A stretch of DNA of 40,902 nt from a virus. The DNA is taken from the IMG/VR virus record IMGVR_UViG_3300030606_000002, positions 1-40,902 of that record; one strand, 5' to 3'. Below, one piece after another: positions 3,213 to 37,816 of the stretch. Numbering within the stretch: the stretch's first letter is position 1; each line of letters opens with the position of its first letter. The translations under genes were made by a program, and so were the position numbers. The notes below the pieces were generated by a model. It was not told the DNA's origin. It searched no databases and saw only the letters and a list, made by a program, of their open reading frames with translations.

Positions 3213-4519
3213 CCGCGAAAGTCGTCGAGCGAGAACCGCGTTCCACGGGCAACCATGAGCGCGCGTAGGGCAGTAAACGTGCTCAGAGAACCAAAGCGAC
3301 TACCAATGGAAATGGTCTGTGCTGTCCATGCGGATGCAAGACTGTTTGCGCCACTCACTGTACCGACGACCTCAGCCGTGCTGTTCTTTGCACAGCCGAT
3401 CTGAACTGATCCGTCCGCGTTGATGAGTGCCCGTAACTCAATCCGATCGCGGAAGGACGGGTCCACGTCAACGGTGCTCGTGACGTCCCCGGCACTGTTG
3501 CCGTGTAGAATCCTGTAACTGTCGCTTCCTCCGAGGCCGTACACAAGAAGTCGTGGACGGTTTTCGTTATTCGCACCAATCACGACGTGTCGGGCATCGT
3601 CCCAGTTCGGCCCGGCAAGGTTCTGAAAGTCCAAGTAAACCGTCATCTCCTGTGGCGGTGCGAGAAACGTCGCGCTCAAACTGTCCGCGTTCCGCGTGAC
3701 CGCCGCAGTCGTGGTCTTGATGTAGGACGAGGAAAAGTTCGCACTGTTCTCGAACTGCGCGCCCCAAATCCCGAGGGCCGAGGCCCCATCGCCGGTGTAC
3801 GTCAGCGTGTTATCCGCGCTCGCGAGGCATACGTCACCGTTGATGGCCGTGGCGGCAGAGCCGATCGACCCGACGAGTGTGCATCGATACCACCCGCTCG
3901 CCAAAGTTTCCACTGTCGCCCGCACGAACGCGGCAGTCCCACCAGCGGACGTCGTACCGATGACCCCGGTATTCACGTTGAAGAACGCCTGGACCGAGTT
4001 ACCTCCTCCCGAGTCGATCAGTCTCAACACTATCCAGTTCCGGCCTTCGCCTGTGTCCTTCGCGAAGACCGACAGCGCGTAGGTCGCATCTGCTGTCGCC
4101 GTCACGCCCTGCCGGACGAAGTGCACACCAGTCGACGTGTCTTCCAGTAACCGTTCGGCGGTCATCGTTCCGTCTGGCGCGGTGAACTGCTCATCTACAA
4201 CCGACGCAAGCAGCTTCGACCACGCCACGTTGTCGAAGCCCTCGGACCATAGGAAGAGGTTCGCTCGTGTCCCCTCCAACAGTACGTGGAGGACACGAGA
4301 GCCGTCCACGAGCGGGAAGTGGGGGCGCATCACGCCGGATGCGGCTAACCGGAGAACCCCATCACGATCGACGTAACTCGCCGTGCCCGTGCGAGTGAAC
4401 GTCTCGATGAGTTCCTCGCCGCCGAACCGTGGCGTCTGCGTGCGACGAAGGAAGACGCCGTACTTCTCAAGAGCGGCGCCGCCCCCATAAAACAGCACGT
4501 CGCGTTCGTGGAGCGTCAT
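3197..4519 (-). CDS. Tail fibre / receptor-binding protein with a concanavalin-A/LamG-like lectin domain
   Basis: A 440-aa ORF with an ATGA overlap to the upstream gene. The motif string ANLFLWSEGFDNVAWSK...TAPDGTMTAERL...SGWYRCTL resembles the jelly-roll domain common in phage fibres. It sits in the tail module. Confidence 0.5.
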   Translation of the reverse strand: MTLHERDVLFYGGGAALEKYGVFLRRTQTPRFGGEELIETFTRTGTASYVDRDGVLRLAASGVMRPHFPLVDGSRVLHVLLEGTRANLFLWSEGFDNVAWSKLLASVVDEQFTAPDGTMTAERLLEDTSTGVHFVRQGVTATADATYALSVFAKDTGEGRNWIVLRLIDSGGGNSVQAFFNVNTGVIGTTSAGGTAAFVRATVETLASGWYRCTLVGSIGSAATAINGDVCLASADNTLTYTGDGASALGIWGAQFENSANFSSSYIKTTTAAVTRNADSLSATFLAPPQEMTVYLDFQNLAGPNWDDARHVVIGANNENRPRLLVYGLGGSDSYRILHGNSAGDVTSTVDVDPSFRDRIELRALINADGSVQIGCAKNSTAEVVGTVSGANSLASAWTAQTISIGSRFGSLSTFTALRALMVARGTRFSLDDFRGWVPS

Positions 4520-5358
4520 CCAAGCCTCCGCTTCGGCGCGCTCTCAACGAACGGGATTTCACCCTGGCGCCATGGATAGTCACTCGGCTGCGGGAAGCCC
4601 AATTGCCCGCCAGCACGCACCACCTGGTACGCATAGTTAGCTTGCGCATCATCGAAACAAATCCACATCGGATGTCCGTCACCGAATTGACCGAGCAGGT
4701 GGTACCGCACCTGGTCATACTCGGCATGGTTGAGGTTGTAGTGAATGGTCCCCTGTCGCGGGCGGTACACCTGACCGCGACTCATCCAACCTGACGGCAC
4801 CTGCGTCTCCTCGACCATGAGCGCGTCCGTCTCGTCATCAAGCGGTGCCTCGAAGTATTCGGGTGAGAACGACAGCCCGATGTGTAGACCAACTATATTC
4901 GGCAGGAGTCCCGCACCCATCGCGTCAATCTGGAACTCGACGGCTTTGCCGACTCGAACCGGGAAACGCTTCAGCCAGGCCCCTTCCTCCGTCCGCACGC
5001 CGAGCGGATCATCGATGTCCCCGGGAACGGATACCGAGGGGAGAGTGAGATCGAAGGCGGTCTCGTACGTGCCCGTGAAGTCTGTCGCGTCGTTCGTGAC
5101 CTTCAGGTCCACGCCGATGCCCTTGAGGTTGTGGCCGCGGTCGAGACCAACGAAATCCAAGGCGCGCAGTCGATCGAAGACGCACCGGATCCACGTCGCG
5201 CTGTTGGTCGTTGTCGGACGCCAGTGATTCCCCTCACTGCGCCGACCGTTTGCGATACTCGCGACTGGGAACCCCGTCGCCTCTTCCTCGGCGGTGAGGA
5301 CATGCAGCGGAAACTGGTGAACACTGAGAAGGTTTTCGACAGCGAGGATGGGAGCCAT
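4516..5358 (-). CDS. Distal tail / baseplate protein (called from position)
   Basis: A 280-aa ORF immediately downstream of the tape measure gene, the usual Dit position. No motif recognised. Confidence 0.4.
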   Translation of the reverse strand: MAPILAVENLLSVHQFPLHVLTAEEEATGFPVASIANGRRSEGNHWRPTTTNSATWIRCVFDRLRALDFVGLDRGHNLKGIGVDLKVTNDATDFTGTYETAFDLTLPSVSVPGDIDDPLGVRTEEGAWLKRFPVRVGKAVEFQIDAMGAGLLPNIVGLHIGLSFSPEYFEAPLDDETDALMVEETQVPSGWMSRGQVYRPRQGTIHYNLNHAEYDQVRYHLLGQFGDGHPMWICFDDAQANYAYQVVRAGGQLGFPQPSDYPWRQGEIPFVESAPKRRLG

Positions 5359-13986: not shown

Positions 13987-15329
13987 TCATCGCCTCCCTG
14001 GTTCTGCGGCTGGGGTTCTGGAACAGTCCCCGGCGTCAACAGATTGATATTCGTCGGTTGGGCGTACACCTCGTCTCCCTCTTCCACCGGGTACCGGAGT
14101 TCCTGCTTGGCCGTCGATCGTTTGATGATGCCTGCCAGATAGTCCGCGCGGACCCGGTTGTGCTTCTCCACGTCATCTTCCATGAGTGCCGGGACGCGCG
14201 TGTGGTCGAACCGCACCCGACGACGAGGCGCTGTGTCGAGATCGGGCAGCAGTTGTCGACCGACCTGTTCGGCAATCGTTTCCTGCATCGGCATCAGACA
14301 ATCCGTCCACGCCATGCGGCGCATCTCGCGCATTGTTGCCCCGACCTTCGTGGTTTGCAATCCGGTCCCGAATCCCACGACGGCCGCCGGGATTCCGAGT
14401 GCCGCGCACACCCGCTCCTCAGAGACGTCGCGCAACGGGGACATATCGAAGGCCTGGAGGTTGTACTGCAACAGCTGCACGTCCGTGGGTTGACCTAACG
14501 CCATCGCCTTGCCCCGACTGTCGCCCGTGAACTTCTCTTGCACGTACTCCTTGACCGCCTTCACGTCGTCGGGACTCGCCGTCCCCTTTTCCTTGGGCGA
14601 GATGATGACGCCGATGATGCCAAAGTTTTGCAGAATGGCCGAGGCGAAGTTCGACGCCTCGTCATCCGTGTACACCTCCCGAACCAGTGCGCCGAGCTGG
14701 GAGAGGCCCAGACGACTGTTACGCGGATCAAGCCCAAACCGGAAGTGCACGACGTCTTTGACGGGAATCTTCACCGCCTGCCCGCCAACTCCCGTCACGG
14801 TCATGTGCTCGCTAAACCCGAGCACGTGACCAACCCCACCAGGCCGATACTCGTAGTGGTCGATGTACGTCTTCCCGTCACGCGGCCAGCGCGGAATCAT
14901 CGTGCACGATGGGACCCACCAAAGTTGAACGACCTCCCCAACACGGTTGCGGATCTTGAGCCAGTAGGCATTCCCGAACGCAAAGTCCAGAATCGTGGCC
15001 ATCCACAACTCACGGCCACCATAGAACTCGTTCGGCACCGCCAACTTGTCCGTCAGAGGATGCGGCTGAACGGTACCCCACTCTTCCTTCCGGAGGCGTT
15101 CCACCACCGGCGGAGCCTGCGGGAAGTTGCGCATGAGCCAATTGAGCGGACCCGCCAACACGGACGACTGCAGGCCGTCACCCACCTTCTGGGCGTAGTC
15201 CACGTTGGTGCCCGGGAGCAGCATCGACTCGAGCCCGTGGAGCCACTGCTGACGACCGTCGTGGACCATCGTCAGCAACTTCTGACCATTGGGCGTCGTC
15301 AGTCGTCGGATACTGTCGAGAAGGTTCAT
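13983..15329 (-). CDS. Portal protein (HK97-type)
   Basis: 448 aa counted from ATG 15329 (ATGA overlap with the terL stop). The earlier in-frame track start would overlap terL. Size and position are typical. Confidence 0.8.
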   Translation of the reverse strand: MNLLDSIRRLTTPNGQKLLTMVHDGRQQWLHGLESMLLPGTNVDYAQKVGDGLQSSVLAGPLNWLMRNFPQAPPVVERLRKEEWGTVQPHPLTDKLAVPNEFYGGRELWMATILDFAFGNAYWLKIRNRVGEVVQLWWVPSCTMIPRWPRDGKTYIDHYEYRPGGVGHVLGFSEHMTVTGVGGQAVKIPVKDVVHFRFGLDPRNSRLGLSQLGALVREVYTDDEASNFASAILQNFGIIGVIISPKEKGTASPDDVKAVKEYVQEKFTGDSRGKAMALGQPTDVQLLQYNLQAFDMSPLRDVSEERVCAALGIPAAVVGFGTGLQTTKVGATMREMRRMAWTDCLMPMQETIAEQVGRQLLPDLDTAPRRRVRFDHTRVPALMEDDVEKHNRVRADYLAGIIKRSTAKQELRYPVEEGDEVYAQPTNINLLTPGTVPEPQPQNQGGDE

Positions 15330-16969
15330 ACCGGCACCCACCCCATCGTTGGCACTAACCCCTCTGCCACGCAATCGCGCGCCGCTTCGTCACTCAAGAT
15401 AGCCGCCATCGCCAAGTCAATCTTATGCGGACTGTCCGGTCGGTCCTTTCGCAGCACCCAGAGCGGTTGCCCTTCTTCGTCTCGCAGTCCGGTGTGCATC
15501 CGACATGCATTGCCCATATGGGCCGCCAACCGCTTGTCGCCGTCGTGACTGATCTCTCCACCCATCATACCCTCAGTGAACGCACGGATTGCGTACGCCA
15601 TGGGTTTCCGACGGTTGGTCCACCACTCAACGACCCGCTTGTCACCGTACGCCCCCGCCCACTTCGAGACGTAACTCTCCCACTTCGGCGGGTCACAGTA
15701 CATCCGCAAGACGTTCCAGGTCTCAAACGCGTCAGCGACCGCCGCGTCAACCTCGTCAATCGGCACCTCCCAGTGCTCGACGTTCGCCGGCCGTTCCCAC
15801 AGTCCAATGACGAACTGATGGCGGTCAGGCAGGAGGGAACCCACGAGAGCCGTCGCATCGTCGAAGCGCGAGCCATCGAACCCGATGGTGATCGGTGCCC
15901 CTTCGGGAATTACCCGCGTAACGTCCGCAAGGCGTCCCCACTGCAACACGTCGAACGCCTTCTCGGTCGCCTGCACGCACCGGTTGAGCCACACGCGCTC
16001 CAGGTACGCCAAGTCCGCGTCGGGTTCCCGGAACGCATCAACGATCCCGTCAATATCGCTCCACGCCGCAATGTACGGGCCCGATGCCTCAAGGATGGCT
16101 GCTCGCAACCCGTCGTCTGTGGTCAGGTCGTGGTGCGGTGACGCCTCGCGGTGGAAAAAGAACAGGCGGGCCCGACTGGGGTCGGCCTGCTTCGCGAGCT
16201 CGATCGCATAATCCATGGTCGCCTCCGCGACCGACCCCGACCCCGGTTCGGGGGCCGTGGTGGTCTCGAGCGCCCAAGCATCCGACATCTGACGTTTGGG
16301 CAGATTGGCGAGCATGTTCCGCCACCCGTCCTTCAGGTGCCGCAGCGTGAACCAGTGCGTTTCGTCCGCGTGCTGAAACGTCGTCCGCGCACCGTCCCGC
16401 GCCTTCGGGGACGTGCTCACCGCCTCCGCCTTGCCGTCACCACCGATACGCGTGATGCGATCAAGGCCGATATCAAAATCAGCAGACAGTCGACTGATCT
16501 CGAGGATCCTGCGCAACGCCCCGTACGCGAGCTCTTCAGTCTGTTCTTCTGACGCCGCTATCATCGGGATGTACGGATCGCTCACGGGACCGGGGATCGG
16601 TTTGCCGTTCTCGAACCCGACACATCTCACCGGCCCGTCCTCGTGCAACTCACAGGCGGCAATCCACGCCGCAATCTCCGTCTTGCTCGATCCCTTCCGC
16701 AGCGAGAGCGCGACACGCCGAAACCGACGTCGACAGGATTGTGGGTTCCGCTCTTTCCGGCGACCGCGGCCCGTGCCGACAAACAGAAACTCCGGCTCCA
16801 CTTCGTACATGCGATAGATCCATGCCCGAAGTTCTTCCGACAGAATGACAGATTCCCCAAGCAGATCCCCGGGGCCGTGGACCAGGTTGCCCTCGATGAA
16901 CGCGCAGACGGAAGGACCGAGCGTTGGCCACGGCTCCTTGTCGGGAGGGGGAACGACAATGGTTGCCAT
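15326..16969 (-). CDS. terL: Terminase large subunit
   Basis: 547 aa, with a Walker-A-like SLRKGSSKTE. It lies between the small terminase and portal genes and has a Terminase_1-like layout. Confidence 0.8.
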   Translation of the reverse strand: MATIVVPPPDKEPWPTLGPSVCAFIEGNLVHGPGDLLGESVILSEELRAWIYRMYEVEPEFLFVGTGRGRRKERNPQSCRRRFRRVALSLRKGSSKTEIAAWIAACELHEDGPVRCVGFENGKPIPGPVSDPYIPMIAASEEQTEELAYGALRRILEISRLSADFDIGLDRITRIGGDGKAEAVSTSPKARDGARTTFQHADETHWFTLRHLKDGWRNMLANLPKRQMSDAWALETTTAPEPGSGSVAEATMDYAIELAKQADPSRARLFFFHREASPHHDLTTDDGLRAAILEASGPYIAAWSDIDGIVDAFREPDADLAYLERVWLNRCVQATEKAFDVLQWGRLADVTRVIPEGAPITIGFDGSRFDDATALVGSLLPDRHQFVIGLWERPANVEHWEVPIDEVDAAVADAFETWNVLRMYCDPPKWESYVSKWAGAYGDKRVVEWWTNRRKPMAYAIRAFTEGMMGGEISHDGDKRLAAHMGNACRMHTGLRDEEGQPLWVLRKDRPDSPHKIDLAMAAILSDEAARDCVAEGLVPTMGWVPV

Positions 16970-18400: not shown

Positions 18401-20347
18401 TTATAGCCCGATACCCAAGTCTAGCGCCAAGGCGGTGCTCGCCACGGATGCGAGTTTCGCTCCCGCCGCGCTCACCGTCACCTCGAAGGGGCTCCCCGAG
18501 ATGGCCACGGTGTTGAGCGTTATGGCGTGCGAATCTGTTCCCGCAGCAGTCGGGGTGTACGAGTACGAGTAGGTCCCGTCGAGGTTATCCGTGACTGAGG
18601 GTGTGTCCTCGTTGGCGCCCGTAATCGCTGCAACAACCGTGTCACCACCTTGCGTCCAGTTTGACCCAAATTGATCCTTGATCTGGATCGTCACATCGAT
18701 TTGCTGGTCCACCGTTCCCGTCGCTGGGACGTTGGCGGTGCTATCTACCGCGCTTGGAGCGGCGTCGGCAATGTCGACCGAGTACGGACTGCCAGAAATA
18801 GGATCGTCATTGAACGTAATCGCGTGGCTGTCGGTCCCTTCGACTGTCGGGGTGGTCACATACGAATACGTCCCGTCCTCGTTATCGGTGATATCCGGCA
18901 AATCCGGGTTGTCACCATTGATTTGGACAACAACGGTATCGCCACCAGCAGTCCAGTTGAGTCCCAGATTATCCTTGATTTGAATCGTCACCGTGATCTG
19001 GATACCAGTGGGACTCGCAGAGGGAACATCCGCTGTTGAGTTGCTCGCGTCAGGCAACGAATCGGAGACCGCGACCGTGAACGGACTATCGAGAATGTTC
19101 GAGGCGTTGAGCGTGATCGTGACCGTCAACGTGCCAGAGGTCGTCGGCGTGACGGTGAATGTGTACGTCCCGTCCGTCTCGTCTGTGACGGTCGGTGTCC
19201 CTGTTTCTGACCCGCTAAGGGTCGCAACGACCGTGTCACCACCACTCGTCCAGTTCGCGCCGAACTGATCTTTGACTTGCACGATCACATCGAATGACAC
19301 TCCGACTGCCGCCTGTGCTGGCACGTCAGCCGTGGTGTTCGCAGCGGTTGGAACTGCGACCGTCTCTACAGTAACCGTGAACGGGCTGCCGACAATGTTC
19401 ACGGCGCCCAACTGAATGGTTACCGTATCGGTTCCCGCCGTTGTGGGGGTGTAACTTGCGGTGTAGCTGCCGTCCCCGTTGTCAGTGACCGTGAGATCCG
19501 CTTCGGGATTGTCACCCGTGACGTCGATATCGAATAACTCACCGCCCCAACTGACAGGGTTCCCGATACGGTCCTTGGCGGTGATGGTGATGTCAACGGG
19601 AGTGTCTACCTCAACGGAACTCGGGACGACGGCGGTACAGTTCGCCGCCTCCACGACTGGAACGCTGATAGCAACGTGACCTGGGTAGTAGATCGGGGGG
19701 TGGCTGTCTGATTTGAACGGTGCGCCAGTTGTGGCGACTGAAAACGTACCGGAAAGAAGGTCGAACTCCGTGGTACCAAGGCGGTGACCAATGCCTTGAA
19801 TGTAGATGTCGGGCCTGATGGAGCAGAGAATTGCACACAAGCCAGCTGCATGTTCGGCGATGAGCAACTCCGCCTGTGCCTGCGTCACTGACCCCCACAT
19901 AGCTGCTTCGGCGAGATGGGCTACATCGTCAGCGTCCCACACCCCGACGGCGAGCGTCACAGCAAGATCAGCGAACGGATCGCCGGATGCAGCACTACCG
20001 ACGAACGCGCCGTCGAAGTAGGCGCGCATGGTGTTCCCGCTCTCGTCAACCCATACCGCCACATGATGCCACGTACCATCCTGTGGGTAGGCAGAAACGG
20101 TAACACTTACATCCCCACCGCCATTGACACGCTGTTTAAGTACGAGACCGTTGGGATCAGCGCCGTTGAAGGCGTCAATAAACCCTCCAACGTTGACCGT
20201 GTTGCGGAGCCAACCCGCGGTCCCAAAACTCGTAGGGTCGCCGGAAAGCCGGAGCCAAAACGTTCTCAGCCCCTCGTCCCACGATTCTATTGCCTGTGTG
20301 AGAGCACTGCCATCAGCCCAAACAATAGTTCCACTCGCAAACGCCAT
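18401..20347 (-). CDS. LamG-domain protein with four tandem filamin/Ig-like repeats (virion surface / adhesin candidate)
   Basis: The N-terminus (WLRLSG...DGTWHHVAVWVDESGNTMRAYFDGAFVG) is Laminin-G_3-like. Residues about 232-626 form four repeats of about 98 aa, each ending ..TD..DGTY(S/T)...TPT..G...(V/I)T(I/L/F)......(G/D)SP(F/Y).V.(V/I), a filamin-repeat pattern. Confidence 0.7.
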   Translation of the reverse strand: MAFASGTIVWADGSALTQAIESWDEGLRTFWLRLSGDPTSFGTAGWLRNTVNVGGFIDAFNGADPNGLVLKQRVNGGGDVSVTVSAYPQDGTWHHVAVWVDESGNTMRAYFDGAFVGSAASGDPFADLAVTLAVGVWDADDVAHLAEAAMWGSVTQAQAELLIAEHAAGLCAILCSIRPDIYIQGIGHRLGTTEFDLLSGTFSVATTGAPFKSDSHPPIYYPGHVAISVPVVEAANCTAVVPSSVEVDTPVDITITAKDRIGNPVSWGGELFDIDVTGDNPEADLTVTDNGDGSYTASYTPTTAGTDTVTIQLGAVNIVGSPFTVTVETVAVPTAANTTADVPAQAAVGVSFDVIVQVKDQFGANWTSGGDTVVATLSGSETGTPTVTDETDGTYTFTVTPTTSGTLTVTITLNASNILDSPFTVAVSDSLPDASNSTADVPSASPTGIQITVTIQIKDNLGLNWTAGGDTVVVQINGDNPDLPDITDNEDGTYSYVTTPTVEGTDSHAITFNDDPISGSPYSVDIADAAPSAVDSTANVPATGTVDQQIDVTIQIKDQFGSNWTQGGDTVVAAITGANEDTPSVTDNLDGTYSYSYTPTAAGTDSHAITLNTVAISGSPFEVTVSAAGAKLASVASTALALDLGIGL

Positions 20348-22750: not shown

Positions 22751-23002
22751 CTAAGCCCGTTGATCCACCTGAACGGCGAAAACGCGGAGACGATCTCCCT
22801 CCGGGGAGTAACAGAAAGCTATGACTTCACCTTCTGTGTGTTCTTCGGTTACTTGCCGATGTGCAGCCCGTGAAGCCTCGTCCTGGGCACATTGCAGCGC
22901 CCAGGACGAGGCTTCATCTCGGTCAGTGAAAACGTGGACCGTCGTATCGGTGTGGCGATCTTGCCAAAGCACCACGTAAACTATCCCGGTTCCCGCCGTC
23001 AT
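22751..23002 (-). CDS. Hypothetical small protein
   Basis: 83 aa from ATG 23002 with GAGGAAGAGGA upstream. The longer track ORF start is rejected. Confidence 0.5.
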   Translation of the reverse strand: MTAGTGIVYVVLWQDRHTDTTVHVFTDRDEASSWALQCAQDEASRAAHRQVTEEHTEGEVIAFCYSPEGDRLRVFAVQVDQRA

Positions 23003-25972: not shown

Positions 25973-26235
25973 TGTGTCACCGCCTCGTGTTTGTCTCGTC
26001 TCGCCTCACGGCGGTGTCTCGTTTCCGCCGCGATGAACCGGGCAATCACCCGCAAACAGTCCTCCTCGAACACTGCCGGACCTGTAAAGAGCGCGTACTT
26101 CCGCCACGGGGTGTACCACCGAACGACCCCAAGGAGCGCGCCTCCTTCAATGGTGCGCACCTCCCACCTTTGCGTTTTCCCGCTCGGGCTCGTTTCGACC
26201 AGTACGAACTTGATCCACGTCTTCTCGTCGCTCAC
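25969..26235 (-). CDS. Hypothetical protein
   Basis: 88 aa from GTG 26235 (GTGA overlap). It contains WIKFVLVETSPSGKTQRWEV...LGVVRWYTPWRKYAL. Confidence 0.45.
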   Translation of the reverse strand: MSDEKTWIKFVLVETSPSGKTQRWEVRTIEGGALLGVVRWYTPWRKYALFTGPAVFEEDCLRVIARFIAAETRHRREARRDKHEAVTQ

Positions 26236-26756
26236 CGCGTCACCGCCTCGCTGTAGGTCCACACCAAGAGCACCAGCCCGAACGGCGGACGTTCGTTTGG
26301 TCCGATACCTTCGCTCCCGACCCTGATGAATCGGGGCCTGCCGGGCAAGAACTCGACCCGGAAGTTCCCTCCGTCACGGTCACGTACAGGTTCCACGTAC
26401 CGTTGCCACCATTTCTGCTCACAGCGGTTGTTAGGCAGCAGCATGACGATCAACTCGGCGCCTCGTTTGTGCTCATCCCAGGCCTTGACGACCCACGGTT
26501 CGATCAGTGAGTAAGGCGGGTTGCACCACACTCGTTCTCCAGCCCACGGTTGCTTCAGTCCATCAACGACCGCGTCGAAGAACCTTGCACACTTCGCGTT
26601 GTGCGCACTCGCCGCCACATCGAGCGTGAAGTAGAACCGCTCGTGAAGCATCCCAAAGAACACCGGGTCCGTCTCACGATCGTCGACGTCGTGTAACGCC
26701 CCACGAGTGGCCACCTGCTGCGGGTGGTTTCGCGCCCGGAACTTCCAGAGCGCCAC
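26232..26756 (-). CDS. DNA N6-adenine methyltransferase (phage Dam-type)
   Basis: FTLDVAASAHNAKCARFF...WCNPPYS is the phage N6A-MTase pattern with an NPPY catalytic motif. Confidence 0.7.
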   Translation of the reverse strand: MALWKFRARNHPQQVATRGALHDVDDRETDPVFFGMLHERFYFTLDVAASAHNAKCARFFDAVVDGLKQPWAGERVWCNPPYSLIEPWVVKAWDEHKRGAELIVMLLPNNRCEQKWWQRYVEPVRDRDGGNFRVEFLPGRPRFIRVGSEGIGPNERPPFGLVLLVWTYSEAVTR

Positions 26757-27255: not shown

Positions 27256-27396
27256 CTACTCCTCCTCGATCTCGGGGAAGTCGGCTGGGTCGGGCTCGCA
27301 CTCGTGAGCACAGTAGGTCACTTCTTCTCCGAACGCCTGAAGGACAGCCACATCACAATCGCACTCGGCTCCGCACTCTGGACATCGGTGTGTCAT
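27256..27396 (-). CDS. Small acidic Cys-rich (zinc-ribbon-like) protein
   Basis: 46 aa: MTHRCPECGAECDCD...YCAHECEPDPADFPEIEEE. ATGA overlap with the methyltransferase stop. Confidence 0.45.
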   Translation of the reverse strand: MTHRCPECGAECDCDVAVLQAFGEEVTYCAHECEPDPADFPEIEEE

Positions 27397-28400
27397 CGGA
27401 CGCCTTCCGCGCACAGGATAGGGCCAACTCTCTGACGGGCCATCTCGATGTATTGCGGGTTTAGGTCGACGTGAATAGCACTCCGACCGTTCCCCGTAGC
27501 GACCTGCGCCACTGTTCCACTTCCACCGAACGGGTCGAGGACTGTGTCCCCAACAGCAGAGCCGGCCAGAATGCACGGCCGCGCCAACGCCTCCGGCATC
27601 GCAGCGAAGTGAGCGCCGACATAGGGTTGGACGGGAATCGTCCAGACGGCGCGGGCTGTACGCTTACCGTTCTTGTCCTCCCACGGCACCGAGCCCCCGA
27701 AATGGCTATCCGGTCGCGTTCGCCCGGGCCCCAACACGCGCTCTTTGTTGCCGCTGCGTCGGCGTTTCGTGATGCCGCTCTGTTTGACTTGGCCGGGGGA
27801 CTGGACGTCGGGGCCCGGGACGCCGTTCCTCGGATGGTCCCCATAGGTAACTGGTTCGGCGATCGCCTCGTGGTCGTAGTAGTAGGATGCACTCTTGCTC
27901 AGGATAAACACGTACTCGTAGTTGAGTGTCGGGCGATCCTTCTGACTACCCGGCATCCCGTTTGGTTTGTGCCAGATGATCGGGCAGCGCAACCACCAGC
28001 CATCGGCGCGGAGCGCGAACGCCACCATCCACGGGATGCCAACGAGGTCCTTTGGTTTGAGTCCGGTGTGGCGCTTCCCACGTCCAACACTCGCTCCGTG
28101 AAGTGCCAAGGCGTGCAGACCGCCCGTTGAGCCACCCCACTTCCCGTCGTTAGCGTACGAGTCTCCCACGTTCAACCACAGCGTGCCGTCAGACGTCAGC
28201 ATCCGTCTGACCTCGCGAAACACTGCCACCAACTTGGCGACGTACTCCTCTGGCGTGCGCTCGAGACCGATCTGGCCCTCGGTGCCATAGTCGCGCAACC
28301 CCCAGTACGGAGGACTGGTTACGCAGCACCGCACACTATCGGACTCAAGTCCACGCAACACCACGAGCGCGTCACCGCAGAGAAGACGAGCGACGGTCAT
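27393..28400 (-). CDS. DNA methyltransferase, beta-class N4-cytosine or N6-adenine (SPPY type)
   Basis: Motif IV is CVTSPPYWGLRDY and motif I is LDPFGGSGTVAQVA near the C-terminus (order IV to I). The start is ATG 28400, with GGAGATGGGGG upstream. The long N-terminal track extension is rejected. Confidence 0.8.
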   Translation of the reverse strand: MTVARLLCGDALVVLRGLESDSVRCCVTSPPYWGLRDYGTEGQIGLERTPEEYVAKLVAVFREVRRMLTSDGTLWLNVGDSYANDGKWGGSTGGLHALALHGASVGRGKRHTGLKPKDLVGIPWMVAFALRADGWWLRCPIIWHKPNGMPGSQKDRPTLNYEYVFILSKSASYYYDHEAIAEPVTYGDHPRNGVPGPDVQSPGQVKQSGITKRRRSGNKERVLGPGRTRPDSHFGGSVPWEDKNGKRTARAVWTIPVQPYVGAHFAAMPEALARPCILAGSAVGDTVLDPFGGSGTVAQVATGNGRSAIHVDLNPQYIEMARQRVGPILCAEGVR

Positions 28401-28440
28401 CGAACCCCCATCTCCAGGATGAACAGGATGACGCACTCCA

Positions 28441-28803
28441 TCAGAACGGGAGGTCCGAATCGTCGTCGAACAACCCGGGCTCCCCAACCGGCGCTGGAAC
28501 CTCGTCCACGTCCGCCCGTATCGTGACCGGTGGCGGGATGGCCGTGTCATCGTCCCCACCTGCGAACCGTTCGGCGGTCCACACTCTCCACCGCGTGTGC
28601 TCCGCCTCATCGTGCGTCCGATGCAACCGCTGCGAGTGCTCCCCTCGCGAGTTGTACTCGACGGGCTCCGCACCACAGACCGCGCACTGCCGTCCCTGTG
28701 GCATCTTCTCGTCCCGTGTCGCCGGCAGCCACTGCTTCCACGTGCGCGGTAAGCTCGGATGTCCACGGTCCCCGTTGCTCGTGACGTGCCGCCAATGCGT
28801 CAT
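28441..28803 (-). CDS. Hypothetical Zn-finger protein with an SSB-like acidic C-terminal tip (...FDDDSDLPF)
   Basis: 120 aa with a CAVCG motif and a His-rich segment. The last residues mimic the bacterial SSB C-terminal D-D-D-(I/L)-P-F tail. ATGA overlap upstream. Confidence 0.5.
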   Translation of the reverse strand: MTHWRHVTSNGDRGHPSLPRTWKQWLPATRDEKMPQGRQCAVCGAEPVEYNSRGEHSQRLHRTHDEAEHTRWRVWTAERFAGGDDDTAIPPPVTIRADVDEVPAPVGEPGLFDDDSDLPF

Positions 28804-34675: not shown

Positions 34676-34983
34676 GAGCGTTCCCTCTGCGCTCGTGCCG
34701 CGAGCATCCGACGGAACCCGTGCGTGCGTCGGCACACCCTGCAGATCTGATCATTCAGTGCAGGCGAGTACTCGAGCTGCTCCGATCGGAGCGGGACCAT
34801 CTTCGAGCAGTGCGTGACCGGCGCGCGGATGGTGCCTCCGTTTGCCAGCCGCATCTCGGCCGAGTGCAGGACCTTGGACCGCGGCATCCGGACGAGGAGC
34901 CGGAGAGCGCTGCGTCGGTCGAGCACTATCTGGTCGTCTTTGGGCTCGAGGGCGGTCACCCGTTGCTCCTGTGCGGTGGTCAC
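34672..34983 (-). CDS. Hypothetical protein
   Basis: 103 aa, GTG start in a GTGA overlap. Confidence 0.4.
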   Translation of the reverse strand: MTTAQEQRVTALEPKDDQIVLDRRSALRLLVRMPRSKVLHSAEMRLANGGTIRAPVTHCSKMVPLRSEQLEYSPALNDQICRVCRRTHGFRRMLAARAQRERS

Positions 34984-35174
34984 GAGCCGACCGGGGACCC
35001 GAGTCGTGCGAGGATGTCATCGATAGCCGGCATCGCAAGCTCGGCGATGAGCTCGGAGGCGGAGAGCCGTTTCCCGCGGTCCAACTGCACGAGCCGGAGC
35101 GCCTCCTGAATCCGGTCCCCCTCCTGGGGAGTGAACCCGACGCCAACCCTATATGTCTTGTTGAGTTCCTTCAC
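34980..35174 (-). CDS. First early-operon gene: small ribbon-helix-helix-like regulator (Cro-analogue candidate)
   Basis: 64 aa. KTYRVGVGFTPQEGDRIQEALRLV has a beta-strand then helix pattern typical of RHH proteins. It is divergent from the repressor gene. Confidence 0.4.
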   Translation of the reverse strand: MKELNKTYRVGVGFTPQEGDRIQEALRLVQLDRGKRLSASELIAELAMPAIDDILARLGSPVGS

Positions 35175-35292
35175 GGCTCGTATCTTCCTGAGCTACTCTG
35201 TGTAGAGAGTGTGTAGCACTGGTGCAACTAACGTAGCGCCGAAGATACTAACGTGGTACGTAGAATGTCAAGGTTTTTGGTTGGAGTTCGAC
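35175..35292. promoter_or_regulatory. Divergent switch region between the early operon and the repressor gene
   Basis: Lower GC than the flanks. Direct repeats TGTGTAG at 35199 and 35210 (11-nt spacing). ACTAACGT at 35227 and 35247 (20-nt spacing). ACGTAG at 35231 and 35258. A plus-strand -10-like TAGAAT at 35261-35266. Confidence 0.5.
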
Positions 35293-35664
35293 GTGGGACG
35301 TAGGAAGCCTACCGCATACACGTGGGCGTTCCGCAGCAGGTTGCTGGACGCGTTCGGCGATCTAACGAAGCACGGCCCACTTTCGAAAGAGGAGTTTGCC
35401 CGGCGAATCTCTGCCGTTCCCGGTTACCGGGGAGTGACCGGTGCTTCAGTCGGTCGCTGGATGCACGAGCAGAAGCCTGACCTGCCAGGGATGGATATTG
35501 TTCCCGCCATTGCGGCCGTGTTGGAGATCCACCCGGGCTGGCTCGCATGGGGACTTCCTCCGCGAGACCCTCCGCCGAGTTTCACAGCCCTCAAGGTTGA
35601 AAACCCAGTCGACCCTCCAGCCAACAAACGGTTGATACAGATGTCACCATTCGAACGTCCTTAA
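35293..35664 (+). CDS. CI-like repressor, XRE-family HTH
   Basis: LSKEEFARRISAVPGYRGVTGASVGRWMHEQKPDLPGMDIVPAIAAVLEIHPGWLAWG is an XRE-type HTH. The start is taken as GTG 35293 (TTGGAG upstream); the track start 35209 lies in the operator region. Confidence 0.65.
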   Translation: MGRRKPTAYTWAFRSRLLDAFGDLTKHGPLSKEEFARRISAVPGYRGVTGASVGRWMHEQKPDLPGMDIVPAIAAVLEIHPGWLAWGLPPRDPPPSFTALKVENPVDPPANKRLIQMSPFERP

Positions 35665-35677
35665 CAGGAGGACTCTA

Positions 35678-35977
35678 ATGCCACTCATCGACTGCCCCGA
35701 CTGCGGCAAGCAGGTCTCCGACCACGCCACCAGCTGTATCGAGTGCGGCCGTCCACTACACGTAGACCTCCTGAGCCGACCCGCCGCCGGCAGCGACGAG
35801 GCAGTGAAGACGGGACGTCAACGATCAAAACTCAGGAACGACCTAGGCAACGCCCTAGGCCTATTCGGGGTCGGTGGGGCAATCGTGGCCGGCACCATGA
35901 GCGGCAGTTTTGCTCTGGGGATCGTACTCGCACTCGTGGCGTTAGGTCTCGCGATCTACGTCGCGTACGGCTACTGA
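35678..35977 (+). CDS. Zinc-ribbon membrane protein co-transcribed with the repressor (superinfection-exclusion candidate)
   Basis: AGGAGG lies 6 nt upstream of the ATG. The N-terminus is CPDCGKQV...CIECG. The C-terminus has two hydrophobic segments (LGLFGVGGAIVAGTM, ALGIVLALVALGLAIYVAY). Confidence 0.6.
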   Translation: MPLIDCPDCGKQVSDHATSCIECGRPLHVDLLSRPAAGSDEAVKTGRQRSKLRNDLGNALGLFGVGGAIVAGTMSGSFALGIVLALVALGLAIYVAYGY

Positions 35978-36131
35978 CCGTCGGCGAGCTCCCGGGCGAG
36001 GTCCAGGAGTCGCTGGCCCTGGGTCTCGAGCACGTCGGCCAGGGGAGCGTTTTCGGGAGCCCTTCGGGAAAACCGGACGCTGAGAATCCCCCAGGATCGG
36101 CGATCGGACCCGTCCGAATGGTAGGGGTAGG

Positions 36132-36211
36132 GGACATATGTCCACCTCGCTAGGCGTCAGCCGATTGTAACAAACCACGACTTTCGGGGCCTCATCGGGT
36201 GGACATATGTC
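36132..36211 (+). promoter_or_regulatory. Pair of palindromic operator-like sites flanking/overlapping a promoter
   Basis: GGACATATGTCCACC (36132-36146) and its inverse GGTGGACATATGTC (36198-36211), each centred on the palindrome GACATATGTC. The -10-like TACTAT/TATATA lies at 36223-36231, just downstream. Confidence 0.5.
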
Positions 36212-36237
36212 GCTCAGGTGACTACTATATAGGTACG

Positions 36238-36261
36238 GCACGGGCAATCCCGCCCGGCCAA
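36238..36261 (+). repeat. 24-nt leader repeat GCACGGGCAATCCCGCCCGGCCAA (copy 1)
   Basis: Identical to 36674..36697. It contains the hairpin CGGGC-AATCCC-GCCCG and is followed by an SD (CGAGGAG) and the ATG at 36274. Confidence 0.5.
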
Positions 36262-36273
36262 CGAGGAGATGAC

Positions 36274-36660
36274 ATGACCGACCGGCTGACCCTCTACCGC
36301 GCCACCGATGACGATATCATCGTGGGGTGTGCATCGTTCGCCTTGTCGCGTGAGGCGGCTGAGGCCTACCTGCGTAACCCCGGGTATGGCGGTCGGTCCC
36401 TGTGGCGTGCTGAGGTCGAGATCGACCCCGAGACACTCCTCGATCTGGTAGCCGTGGACGACCCTATCGCGACCATCATGCAGACGACCGGACTGCCGCA
36501 CCCTGGAGCCATCGGTGCCGACGAGTGGGTCCCCCGCATCGCCGACCGTCTAGCTGACGTCGGTATCGAGTGGGTCCGAGTCGCCGAGTCGTACCCGACC
36601 AACACCGTCACCTACATCTTCGTGGGCTCGGATGACCCGGAAATGGAGCCGGTCGAATGA
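36274..36660 (+). CDS. Small acidic hypothetical protein (operon gene 1)
   Basis: 128 aa from ATG 36274, with GAGGAG upstream. No recognisable motif. Confidence 0.55.
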   Translation: MTDRLTLYRATDDDIIVGCASFALSREAAEAYLRNPGYGGRSLWRAEVEIDPETLLDLVAVDDPIATIMQTTGLPHPGAIGADEWVPRIADRLADVGIEWVRVAESYPTNTVTYIFVGSDDPEMEPVE

Positions 36661-36673
36661 CGACCCCACAGAC

Positions 36674-36697
36674 GCACGGGCAATCCCGCCCGGCCAA
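36674..36697 (+). repeat. 24-nt leader repeat (copy 2)
   Basis: An exact copy of 36238..36261, followed by ACGAGGGAAGGA and the ATG at 36717. Confidence 0.5.
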
Positions 36698-36716
36698 ACG
36701 AGGGAAGGAACTCGAC

Positions 36717-36980
36717 ATGACTACCACGATACTCGGCACACTGCGGACGGACGACGAGACGGTGCAGATCGTCCACGACGGAACGACAGTCGTGGCACTG
36801 CTGGCCGACGGAAGACGAGAGTACCCCATCGAGGGCCGGGAGGTGACCGTCAGGCAGGCACTCGTCGACCTGCACGACCTGTACGTAGGGTGGCAGTGGG
36901 ACCCGGAGATCGACTGGCGAGACCTGCGCAACGAGGATGACGAGGAGGAGGTCGCGTACCAGGAGTACCTAGACCGATGA
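36717..36980 (+). CDS. Small, very acidic hypothetical protein (operon gene 2)
   Basis: 87 aa from ATG 36717. By my count it has 22 Asp/Glu and 8 Arg/Lys. An alternative start at ATG 36657 (ATGA overlap) would add 20 aa that span the leader repeat. Confidence 0.5.
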   Translation: MTTTILGTLRTDDETVQIVHDGTTVVALLADGRREYPIEGREVTVRQALVDLHDLYVGWQWDPEIDWRDLRNEDDEEEVAYQEYLDR

Positions 36981-37183
36981 CGACCCCACATCTCACCGAA
37001 GAAGAGGAATCGGAGCTTATGTCCTGGCGACTGTACGGCTCCGACGGCTACCCCGTGCAGCAGCTCGGACGCCGCTGGGTCGTACCCCATGTCCCCGCCG
37101 TGTTCGCGACCCGGCGTGCCGCCGTGGCACAGTGGGAAGCGTACATCTACGCTCTCTGCGACCGAAAGGCCGGACGGCTATGA
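36977..37183 (+). CDS. Small hypothetical protein (operon gene 3)
   Basis: 68 aa, ATGA overlap. The gene start ATGACGACCCCACA is identical to 36657-36670. Confidence 0.5.
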   Translation: MTTPHLTEEEESELMSWRLYGSDGYPVQQLGRRWVVPHVPAVFATRRAAVAQWEAYIYALCDRKAGRL

Positions 37184-37407
37184 CGGTCCCCCAGACGGCG
37201 GTGGAGTGGAGAGATCTGCTCCGCCGCCGGATCACCGAATCGGGGCTCTCGCTCACCGAGTTCGCCGAGACCGTCCTGCTCCGCGAGCGTCGCACCGTCG
37301 CCCGCTGGCTCGACGGCGACTCTCCTATCCCGCAGCGCGTCCAAGAGTGGCTGACCGATCCGCAGGTGGCGCCGTGGCCGGAGCACGTACCGGGCGCAGA
37401 CCCTTAG
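37180..37407 (+). CDS. Small HTH DNA-binding protein (operon gene 4, Aca-like candidate)
   Basis: 75 aa, ATGA overlap. ITESGLSLTEFAETVLLRERRTVARWLDGDSPIP is an XRE-type helix-turn-helix. Confidence 0.55.
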   Translation: MTVPQTAVEWRDLLRRRITESGLSLTEFAETVLLRERRTVARWLDGDSPIPQRVQEWLTDPQVAPWPEHVPGADP

Positions 37408-37494
37408 GCAGGGAAGGGGATAGCGCCCGCACCGCCAAGAGTGTATACTGACTTCGAACTAGCTGCGGTTCATGCTTCCGGCCACGGAAGCCCA

Positions 37495-37523
37495 AGCCCT
37501 CGGGATTCGTTCCGGGGGCTTTT
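37495..37523 (+). terminator. Intrinsic terminator candidate for the plus-strand operon
   Basis: AGCCCTCGG-gattcgtt-CCGGGGGCT (9 bp including one G:U) followed by TTTT. Confidence 0.5.
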
Positions 37524-37717: not shown

Positions 37718-37741
37718 AAAAGCAATTACGCGCGTAATTGC
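37718..37741 (-). terminator. Intrinsic terminator for the minus-strand lysis/moron transcript
   Basis: A perfect 20-nt palindrome GCAATTACGCGCGTAATTGC (37722-37741), followed on the minus strand by TTTT (37721-37718). Confidence 0.6.
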
Positions 37742-37807
37742 GGGAGGTGGGGGTCGAACCCACCGAGACACGCTTATGAGGCGCGCGAGGTCACCGGACC
37801 TTCCCGC
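37739..37807 (-). tRNA. Truncated tRNA-like element, anticodon CAU (Met/Ile2-type), atypical D-arm
   Basis: Folded by hand on the minus strand: acceptor GCGGGAA/CTCCCGC (6 pairs plus one A:C mismatch); GGTC-CGGT-GACC in place of the D-arm, with no 8-9 linker; anticodon arm CGCGC-CTCATAA-GCGTG; variable loop TCTCG; T-arm GTGGG-TTCGACC-CCCAC; discriminator A; no encoded CCA. Only 69 nt. Confidence 0.4.
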
Positions 37808-37816
37808 GTCACCCGT

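Follow-up and report, generated by a model that had tools for sequence, protein, structure and literature searches.

An Aca-like operon with an ADP-ribosyltransferase-fold gene and a conserved leader hairpin in a metagenomic tailed phage: a candidate counter-defence cassette

Regulators of the anti-CRISPR-associated (Aca) type are the main tool for finding anti-defence genes through guilt by association. The present paper deals with a short operon at positions 36132-37407 of the IMG/VR virus record IMGVR_UViG_3300030606_000002, a metagenomic tailed phage whose 40,902 nucleotides (nt; ~40.9 kb) were analysed as a whole and are hereafter called the window. The operon comprises four small genes, the last of which encodes a helix-turn-helix (HTH) protein, and is preceded by a pair of inverted palindromes; an original prediction, made from the sequence alone, had seen in it an anti-CRISPR (Acr)-Aca-like anti-defence candidate. 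The analysis described below assigns the HTH gene to a family which travels with a promoter palindrome and with highly variable cargo genes, predicts an ADP-ribosyltransferase (ART) fold for the product of the first gene, and describes a conserved hairpin in the putative leader of the transcript; on the whole, these observations point to a candidate Aca-like, autoregulated counter-defence cassette.

Organization of the operon

The features of the locus, from the upstream operator to the terminator, are the following (lengths of proteins in amino acids, aa; the two operator copies are given without strand):

36132-36146: upstream operator copy, reading GGACATATGTCCACC, a perfect 12-bp palindrome GGACATATGTCC followed by ACC
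36198-36212: promoter-proximal operator copy, GGT-GGACATATGTCg, overlapping the -35 hexamer; counterpart of the family operator GGGCAWWTGCCC (see below)
36200-36228, plus strand: sigma-70-like promoter, -35 TGGACA, 17-nt spacer, -10 TACTAT, overlapping the second operator copy
36237-36259, plus strand: leader copy 1, a hairpin in the 24-nt repeat 36238-36261, just 5' of the Shine-Dalgarno sequence of gene 1
36274-36660, plus strand: gene 1, 128 aa, acidic, predicted ADP-ribosyltransferase fold; true ATG at 36274
36674-36697, plus strand: leader copy 2, hairpin 36674-36694, between the gene 1 stop and the Shine-Dalgarno/ATG at 36717
36717-36980, plus strand: gene 2, 87 aa, very acidic orphan; the alternative start at 36657 gives 107 aa
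36977-37183, plus strand: gene 3, 68-aa orphan
37180-37407, plus strand: gene 4, 75 aa, four-helix Xre/Cro-type HTH protein, proposed autorepressor
37474-37523, plus strand: two GC-rich terminator hairpins, the second of which (37496-37519), with TTTT after it, resembles an intrinsic terminator

Gene 1 is preceded by a gap of 296 nt (35978-36273), in which the original prediction had placed two copies of a palindrome in inverted orientation at 36132 and 36198. This is confirmed exactly: according to a repeat finder, 36133-36146 and 36198-36211 (the latter reading GGTGGACATATGTC) form a 14-nt inverted repeat which is 100% complementary and has 51 nt between its arms; the two operator copies share GGACATATGTC(C) and lie 69 bp apart, centre to centre. 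With a minimum length of 14 nt and a maximum gap of 100 nt, the window contains just two perfect inverted repeats, of which the operator pair is one, against a mean of 0.03 in 100 dinucleotide-preserving shuffles, and the 12-mer GGACATATGTCC, even when up to two mismatches are allowed, occurs in the whole window only at the two operator positions. A scan of viral contigs for the 14-mer GGTGGACATATGTC returned more than 119 single matches, evidently due to chance, and was uninformative. The second copy had been described as lying immediately upstream of the -10 element; it is close to this element but not adjacent, the -10 starting 11 nt after the palindrome.

The ATGA stop/start overlaps (at 36657, 36977 and 37180), the lengths of the four products and the counts of acidic and basic residues are as originally claimed (22 acidic versus 8 basic residues in the 87-aa form of gene 2; for gene 1 the figures are 24 and 9, with an isoelectric point of 4.1), the point to be amended being the start of gene 1, which is at 36274. 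The called frames are supported by their third-position GC content, which is 0.74-0.86 as compared with 0.75 in the terminase gene. An exact 14-nt repeat, ATGACGACCCCACA, is found at 36657-36670 and at 36977-36990, that is at the junctions of genes 1 and 2 and of genes 2 and 3, both copies reading MTTP...; it renders the true start of gene 2 (36657 or 36717) ambiguous and, taken with the duplicated leader, points to an insertion of gene 1 or gene 2 through recombination at the junction sequences. The two GC-rich hairpins after gene 4, the second with its T-run, indicate that the unit is a closed operon; neither these hairpins nor the 24-nt direct repeat had been noticed in the original prediction.

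The absence of any recognisable motif in the first three products, also asserted there, holds for two of them. Genes 2 and 3 remain orphans: searches of Pfam, PHROGs, NCBIfam and PADLOC gave nothing usable for either, apart from a weak match of gene 3 to phrog_15891 (E 0.003); phmmer and tblastn against all fetched loci found nothing, and a word-indexed homologue search with gene 2 returned gene 2 itself only. Gene 1 departs from this picture on account of its predicted fold (see below).

The HTH family, its operator, its cargo and the leader hairpin

A word-indexed search with gene 4 returned nothing but itself, a false negative which was corrected by tblastn; in loci sharing the 24-nt repeat, homologues at 55-62% identity were found in three unrelated contigs (L027, L032 and L037). 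Pattern-based scans then gave a family represented at 16 viral and 50 metagenomic loci, with members of 53-81 aa carrying the signature SGLSARxFAxxVLxRDERT[VI]RRWLAGDSPIP, none of which was detected by tblastn in 50,697 isolate phage records or in 72,556 plasmids. Members of the family match Pfam HTH_29, HTH_31, HTH_3 and HTH_23, and three of them match Aca2_YdiL (best E 0.13). The top Foldseek matches of the model of gene 4 are all HTH proteins of the Xre/Cro type (Aca2, Aca7, C-proteins, HipB, HigA and NatR). When the profile of the family was compared with all PDB sequences, the first match was 7XI5 (E 0.01), which is Aca10 (65 aa, four helices), a dimer that represses an acr operon, followed by Aca1 (E 0.02-0.05), and pairwise hhalign gave probabilities of 93% and 91%, respectively. 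The comparison with known Aca families which had been proposed in the original prediction therefore returns Aca10 and Aca1 as the best PDB profile matches, albeit weak ones (E 0.01-0.05), and the scores, suggestive though they are, fall short of establishing membership of a named Aca family.

At every locus with sufficient sequence upstream, a short plus-strand operon ends with the HTH gene, which in the loci read in detail, including L027, L032 and L037, overlaps its upstream neighbour by ATGA. A palindrome of the type GGGC-N4-GCCC lies upstream on the same strand in 25 of the 50 distinct loci, the upstream sequence reaching 600 nt or more in only 34 of them; no family palindrome of this type occurred in 1.2 Mb of control phage loci. 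The family operator is the 12-bp GGGCAWWTGCCC, and its usual place is in the promoter: in the design seen in the sister loci (-35 TTGACA or TTGCGC; -10 such as TATACT, TATATT or TAGCTT) the palindrome, GGGCA(A/T)(A/T)TGCCC, fills the 3' part of the -35/-10 spacer and abuts the -10 in most of those examined. The site is single in most of the 5-10 kb loci examined; L188 has two copies of GGCATATGCC, 54 bp apart, which recalls the pair of the window with its 69 bp. With respect to the family sequence GGGCATATGCCC, the palindrome of the window shows a symmetric change (G3 to A and C10 to T), and the recognition helix reads RERRTVARW as against RDERTVRRW in the family, helix 2 differing too; helix and operator differing together would look like a changed specificity, in a single case. 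A separate arrangement is found in L037, identical with L164 (IMGVR_UViG_3300022213_000011), where positions 2000-4700 hold four tandem promoter-plus-leader units in 2.7 kb, a GTGA-N5-TCAC inverted repeat replaces the GGGC palindrome, and the HTH gene ends the first unit only.

What lies between operator and HTH gene is extremely variable, 40 open reading frames from 27 loci falling into 37 clusters, and genes 1-3 of the window have no relatives in the HTH-family loci. Among the sister cargo, L204 encodes ArdC, composed of ArdcN (E 1.5e-35) and MPTase-PolyVal (E 5.5e-37), and L172 encodes LPD29 (E 4e-17). Since the recognisable cargo consists of ArdC, LPD29 and the ART of the window, every identifiable cargo is of the anti-restriction or polyvalent-protein type. 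By eye, a small cytosine-methyltransferase-like cargo was noted in L174 and an HD-like one in L162, with no Pfam match for either. The sequences compared show that a promoter palindrome and hypervariable cargo, ArdC included, are linked to the HTH family, and the layout that the original prediction had likened to acr-aca operons recurs throughout the family, whose genes end short operons with variable cargo behind a conserved core-promoter palindrome.

The third conserved element is the leader. The exact 24-nt direct repeat GCACGGGCAATCCCGCCCGGCCAA occurs at 36238 and 36674 (0 expected by chance), each copy just upstream of a Shine-Dalgarno sequence and ATG, those of gene 1 and of the 87-aa gene 2, respectively. 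The predicted structure has an invariant loop, AAUCCC, on a stem of 8 bp interrupted by a single bulged base; the outer stem covaries, and the closing stem GGGC/GCCC is invariant. In most sister loci the leader begins with the operator half-site GGGCAAT. Exact occurrences of the repeat core GGGCAATCCCGCCCGG were found in the contigs of about 10 different phages, and the leader core GGGCAATCCCGCCCG(G/A) is common to unrelated metagenomic phages (L027-L042, L165-L223) and to phiCbK-like Caulobacter phages; in the latter, 3-10 places per genome match a 38-nt leader query, the place of the best hit being, for most records, within the annotated terminal-repeat region. In nearly all cases the leader stands 10-15 nt past a -10-like element and 10-30 nt ahead of a Shine-Dalgarno sequence and ATG; in the window the -10 ends 13 nt before the leader core, as in L165 and L169 (11-15 nt in other sister loci). 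The leader is present in 17 of the 50 HTH loci, and in all loci with both elements the distance from palindrome to leader is 29-34 nt, with the exception of L203 (49 nt), as compared with 41 nt in the window.

Copy 2 of the window has no promoter-like site upstream, and such an internal, promoterless second copy is found in three cassettes (the window, L027 and L170). In L027 (810-835) and L170 (~4640-4665) the internal leader is preceded by a GC-rich hairpin, CCGGGGGTGCAATGCCCCCGG or GGGGGTGCAAGGCCCCC, which the window copy lacks and which could be an internal attenuator or processing site.

Evidence for the hairpin as an RNA structure comes from 26 distinct instances, from which the structure itself was derived: the share of paired cells is 88%, while sliding the partners gives 49.5% at most, the covariation score is 0.159 as compared with 0.078 in shuffles (0 of 500), and one pair is seen as UA (7), CG (6), UG (6) and GC (1). 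Rfam had no match at 36237-36259 or 36674-36694 at E up to 10; searches of literature text with the leader and operator sequences retrieved unrelated primers or nothing, and the phiCbK genome paper makes no mention of a stem-loop, hairpin, inverted repeat or conserved sequence. No HTH homologue was found by tblastn in the phiCbK-like phages bearing the leader and, since the motif is present there without the HTH gene, it probably serves a host-directed function at the RNA level, such as stability or translation, recognition by the HTH protein being conceivable as well; the shared motif gives a weak hint that the host of the window phage may be Caulobacter-like.

The possibility that the leader is a DNA operator of the HTH protein was considered and is disfavoured, given its occurrence without the HTH gene in the phiCbK-like phages, its asymmetric bulge, the toleration of G-U pairs on the sense strand, and the copies inside operons without a promoter.

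Gene 1 and the ADP-ribosyltransferase fold

At the sequence level gene 1 is isolated from named families, Pfam, PHROGs, NCBIfam and PADLOC yielding nothing usable (no Pfam family at E up to 1) and a profile search of PDB sequences only chance matches to EF-hand proteins and antibodies. A large protein collection contains 38 homologues besides the window protein, all metagenomic and unnamed, and their alignment shows R9, F22, Y32, N35-P36-G37-x-G39-G40, D57, D83-E84, W100, S106, P108 and T113 to be invariant; E105 is nearly so (at least 90% conserved), and S21 is mostly Ser. An AlphaFold2 model based on this alignment has a predicted local distance difference test (pLDDT) score of 94.8 and a predicted template modelling (pTM) score of 0.88. 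The structure prediction and Foldseek search that the original prediction had recommended were fruitful here: the top match in the PDB is 6KYF (E 4e-4, template modelling score, TM, 0.57), whose identity as AcrF11 (AcrIF11) was confirmed, followed by Xre-RES toxins, ParT, diphtheria toxin, MbcT, VPA0770 and NatT, with tankyrases at weak E-values, while a viral structure library returned PolyVal ADP-ribosyltransferase and large-polyvalent-protein entries. From these fold matches, gene 1 is predicted to encode a minimal protein of the ADP-ribosyltransferase fold.

The conserved residues (R9 in strand 1; in strand 2 a residue, mostly Ser, ahead of F22; a Glu past strand 5) resemble the R-S-E type. 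They are unlike the active sites of ART-PolyVal, reported as H-Y-D (PMC5512222), and of RES, described as R-Y-N (PMC9503650). E105 and S106 are conserved after strand 5, and the acidic residue at this place may correspond in position to D115/E116 of AcrIF11.

An exhaustive profile search of 1.84 billion representative proteins recovered the gene 1 domain in 355 clusters, comprising solo proteins of ~125-140 aa and many occurrences within proteins of 1000-2800 aa. The multi-domain hosts of gene 1-like domains measure 737-2832 aa, and the partner domains in the giant proteins include Phage_Mu_F, ART-PolyVal, ddrB-ParB, InPase, HD_4, cytosine methylase and Topoisom_I; where PF18760 was matched (L017 and L020), it lies in another region of the same protein than the gene 1 domain. 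At several of 26 loci the gene 1-like domain is inside very large open reading frames, and no recurrent neighbour gene was found across these loci, the lack of a fixed partner arguing against a toxin in need of a dedicated antitoxin. Occurrence both in giant multi-domain proteins and as solo genes is the hallmark of polyvalent proteins, for which an action on host systems at an early stage of invasion is predicted (Iyer et al. 2017; PMC5512222).

Genomic setting, interpretation and relation to known systems

The window is nearly the whole of a metagenomic contig, the gene 1 product being recorded on one of 40,916 bp. The phage to which the operon belongs has no DNA-level similarity to isolate phages that could be found; its large terminase (15326-16969, minus strand) shares 43-47% identity with actinophage terminases, and the window also encodes an NlpC/P60 lysin and a weak RusA-like match. 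Most genes are on the minus strand, 35209-37407 being the sole plus-strand block, and it is this block that holds the operon. Two further genes are candidates for DNA-binding proteins:

35209/35293-35664, plus strand: upstream CI-like gene with weak HTH matches; probable start GTG 35293 after GGAG
34980-35174, minus strand: 64-aa gene, ribbon-helix-helix (RHH)-like by eye

Between them, 35175-35292 appears to be a divergent control region, carrying a leftward promoter-like TTGACA-18-TATCTT and, at 35227 and 35247 (20 nt apart), direct repeats of ACTAACGTRG, which differ from the GGACATATGTCC sites. Directly after the repressor-like gene, 35678-35977 encodes a protein of 99 aa whose N-terminal part is a zinc ribbon (Pfam Zn_Ribbon_1, E 1.7e-6) and whose C-terminal segment is, by eye, hydrophobic and glycine-rich. 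Farther away are two methyltransferase genes, 26232-26756 (minus strand; Dam-like, E 9e-22) and 27393-28766 (minus strand; N6_N4_Mtase, E 8e-43), which suggest self-methylation of the phage DNA as an additional anti-restriction measure, and, between the terminase and the early genes, 18401-20347 (minus strand), which encodes a protein of 648 aa that contains four Filamin/Invasin_D3 Ig-like repeats (E 8e-46). The other long perfect inverted repeat of the window, at 22871-22916, has an 18-bp stem (TGAAGCCTCGTCCTGGGC...GCCCAGGACGAGGCTTCA) and a 10-nt loop, with no clear T-run after it on the plus strand. Downstream of the operon, a tRNA-Met gene occupies 37739-37809 (minus strand), and a perfect 20-bp palindrome with the halves GCAATTACGC and GCGTAATTGC at 37722-37741 overlaps the 3' end of this gene by 3 nt. 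The notion that the operon marks a prophage end beside the tRNA-Met was rejected: no integrase was present among the 20 larger open reading frames scanned, and lysis-like genes continue past the tRNA.

We consider it probable, though well short of certain, that the operon is an Aca-like, negatively autoregulated counter-defence cassette of this ~41-kb tailed phage. Its architecture (promoter, inverted-repeat operator, variable small genes, terminal HTH gene) is well supported by the sequence comparisons; an anti-defence function would fit this architecture, and it gains indirect support from the predicted ART fold of gene 1, with AcrIF11 as top match, and from the presence of ArdC and LPD29 in sister cassettes. 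In such a cassette, host RNA polymerase would initiate at TGGACA-17-TACTAT, and the mRNA would carry a 5' hairpin leader, gene 1 for the ART-fold enzyme, a second leader before gene 2, the orphans 2 and 3, and the HTH gene 4. The product of gene 1, which may be catalytically active, would modify a host protein with NAD+ early in infection, its most likely target being a defence component; the accumulating HTH dimer would then bind GGACATATGTCC over the -35 and the auxiliary copy 69 bp upstream, and would thereby shut the promoter and limit a potentially harmful enzyme. Recognition of these palindromes by the gene 4 protein, like the identity of the target as a defence protein, is put forward here as the presumed course of events.

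A number of observations weigh against this reading. As regards gene 1, hhalign of its family with AcrIF11 gave a probability of 0.2% over 10 aligned columns, strand 1 carries an Arg as against the H-F-H-D key residues reported for AcrIF11, and ART enzymes in phages serve host takeover or act as toxins too; indeed, of the Acr-Aca-like candidate originally proposed, it is the architecture that is borne out, whereas no gene shows sequence homology to a known Acr. As regards gene 4, the window's own protein has no Pfam match and gave nothing usable in PHROGs, NCBIfam or PADLOC, its single-sequence model of four helices is moderately confident (pLDDT 75), all its Foldseek E-values are at least 0.4, and the matches of the family to Aca10 and Aca1 are marginal, and any HTH of the Xre type may score similarly in pairwise hhalign. 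As regards the operator, L037/L164, L166 and L175 have no palindrome, the site of the window overlaps the -35 instead of occupying the spacer position seen in its relatives, the covariation of helix and operator rests on essentially one lineage, and the sites could be used by the other DNA-binding candidates nearby (35209-35664 and 34980-35174).

Among the alternatives, a cassette for host takeover, in which the gene 1 product, after the manner of T4 Alt, ModA or ModB, would have RNA polymerase, translation factors or other housekeeping proteins as targets of its ADP-ribosylation while the HTH protein still autoregulates, is in our opinion unlikely. The fusion of the gene 1 domain to Mu_F and its presence in polyvalent proteins, for which the literature predicts packaging, injection and, on the model of Alt, modification of host proteins (PMC5512222; PMC9503650), speak for it, as do the R...S...E-like residues, which are closer to the R-S-E clade of Alt/VIP2 than to the H-Y-D of ART-PolyVal; yet the recognisable sister cargo consists of the anti-restriction ArdC and of LPD29, with no takeover functions, the nearest solved structure is an anti-CRISPR ART, and anti-defence loci bear the signature of cargo that is hypervariable while its small repressor is conserved (PMC9410906). 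The takeover and anti-defence roles of the ART cannot be separated by sequence. The original prediction had itself named a defence or toxin-antitoxin-like module as the alternative, and this fares worse: that gene 1 is a toxin like RES, ParT or MbcT, neutralised by the acidic gene 2 product and/or by the HTH protein, which would also repress the operon, in a toxin-antitoxin or abortive-infection/superinfection-exclusion module, has to be judged improbable by a wide measure, although RES, ParT, MbcT and VPA0770 toxins account for Foldseek hits 2-5, 10-11 and 18 of gene 1, the HTH profile weakly matches the antitoxins MbcA and HigA, the gene 4 model resembles NatR, HipB and HigA, and a small acidic protein is encoded directly after the enzyme gene. 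Against it stand the missing recurrent partner at the 26 other gene 1 loci and the location of the domain inside polyvalent proteins; the gene order, which is reversed with respect to Xre-RES; the 75-aa HTH protein, a regulator only, with no toxin-binding domain; the pairing of the HTH family with unrelated cargo such as ArdC and LPD29; the failure of gene 1 to match Pfam RES or PADLOC; and the R-Y-N of RES (PMC9503650) as compared with S21 (mostly) and E105 in the gene 1 family.

Two further explanations concern the palindromes themselves. The GGACATATGTCC sites may serve another regulator, either the upstream CI-like HTH protein (35209/35293-35664) or the protein that is RHH-like by eye (34980-35174, minus strand), the operon being then under lysis/lysogeny control and gene 4 acting elsewhere. 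In favour of this, the genes of both candidates lie within 1.2 kb, and the palindrome of the window is off the family consensus and shifted in its promoter position; but the palindrome is missing from the rest of the window, the divergent promoter region of the upstream gene included, where the ACTAACGTRG repeats are found instead, the gene 4 family travels with such a palindrome across ~50 loci, and neither upstream protein has homologues in those loci, so that we give this explanation a small chance, little above that of the toxin-antitoxin module. Lowest of all we rate the proposal that the 14-nt inverted repeat is an RNA hairpin, an attenuator or a processing site in read-through from the repressor/zinc-ribbon operon, which seems highly improbable: 36125-36220 does fold into a long hairpin (predicted -39.5 kcal/mol) and gives a sub-threshold hairpin-type Rfam match, but this match (mir-507), which at 24.6 bits is far below the threshold of 79, is due to the long inverted repeat only, no U-run follows the hairpin, and each arm is itself a palindrome of the family promoter-operator type, the family operators being single sites.

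What is new here is the HTH/operator family, the ART clade as its cargo, and the leader hairpin, previously undescribed. The HTH family, operator and leader are frequent in environmental phage contigs and lead to ~40 unexplored cargo families, among them a new ART clade, ArdC and LPD29; the analysis furthermore connects early genes that stand alone with domains of giant polyvalent phage proteins, and the leader, being common to the well-studied Caulobacter phiCbK phages, is directly testable there. A bolder proposal would be that the leader is an undescribed phage cis-regulatory RNA standing before counter-defence cistrons and read either by the Aca-like HTH protein, through binding of both DNA and RNA, or by a Caulobacter-like host factor, and that gene 1 founds a new Arg-type mini-ART anti-defence family; taken jointly, these suppositions are conceivable but rather doubtful. 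If true, the HTH-operator-leader frame would serve as a marker by which uncultivated phages can be searched for new anti-defence genes.

Among known systems, the acr-aca operons governed by Aca10 and Aca1 are the closest in design. Aca-controlled promoters have an inverted repeat in the core promoter, often with a second, non-essential one (PMC9410906), and the window likewise has a palindrome in the core promoter and a second inverted repeat upstream; in both, the small HTH gene comes last (75 aa and four helices in the window, a 65-aa four-helix bundle in Aca10), and the HTH family is linked to variable small upstream genes on mobile elements. The differences reside in the operator, which is GGGCAWWTGCCC or GGACATATGTCC here as against the 19-bp ATACGCTCATTGAGCGTAT of Aca10, in the cassettes, none of which contains a validated Acr, in the distribution of the HTH family, found only in uncultivated phages, and in the conserved, putatively transcribed hairpin leader, which is an additional feature. 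In this last respect another Aca protein offers a parallel: according to a 2024 report, Aca2 is said to control the acr mRNA leader by binding an RNA stem-loop. In the present operon, too, a promoter operator is joined by a conserved stem-loop, which lies past the transcription start and ahead of the ribosome-binding site; unlike the case of Aca2, the leader is also found in phiCbK-like phages lacking an HTH homologue by tblastn.

With AcrIF11 (6KYF), gene 1 shares the predicted ART fold, for which it is the top Foldseek match, and it differs from it in having no sequence homology and an Arg instead of a His in strand 1, as well as in a host that is unlikely to be Pseudomonas. The RES toxins (Xre-RES, ParT-ParS, MbcT-MbcA) are similar in the ART-like fold, the Arg of strand 1, the size, and the presence of an HTH protein in the operon; unlike them, gene 1 has neither a Pfam RES match nor a conserved partner and keeps its Ser and Glu, the gene 4 protein lacks a neutralising domain of the DUF2384 type, and the HTH gene is downstream. 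With respect to ART-PolyVal, gene 1 has no PF18760 match, its domain sits beside PF18760 as a separate one, and R9, S21/F22 and E105 of its family take the place of H-Y-D; nevertheless, like ART-PolyVal and the T4 enzymes Alt, ModA and ModB, the domain is encountered in giant multi-domain proteins, in Mu_F fusions and in solo genes such as the one that opens this operon.

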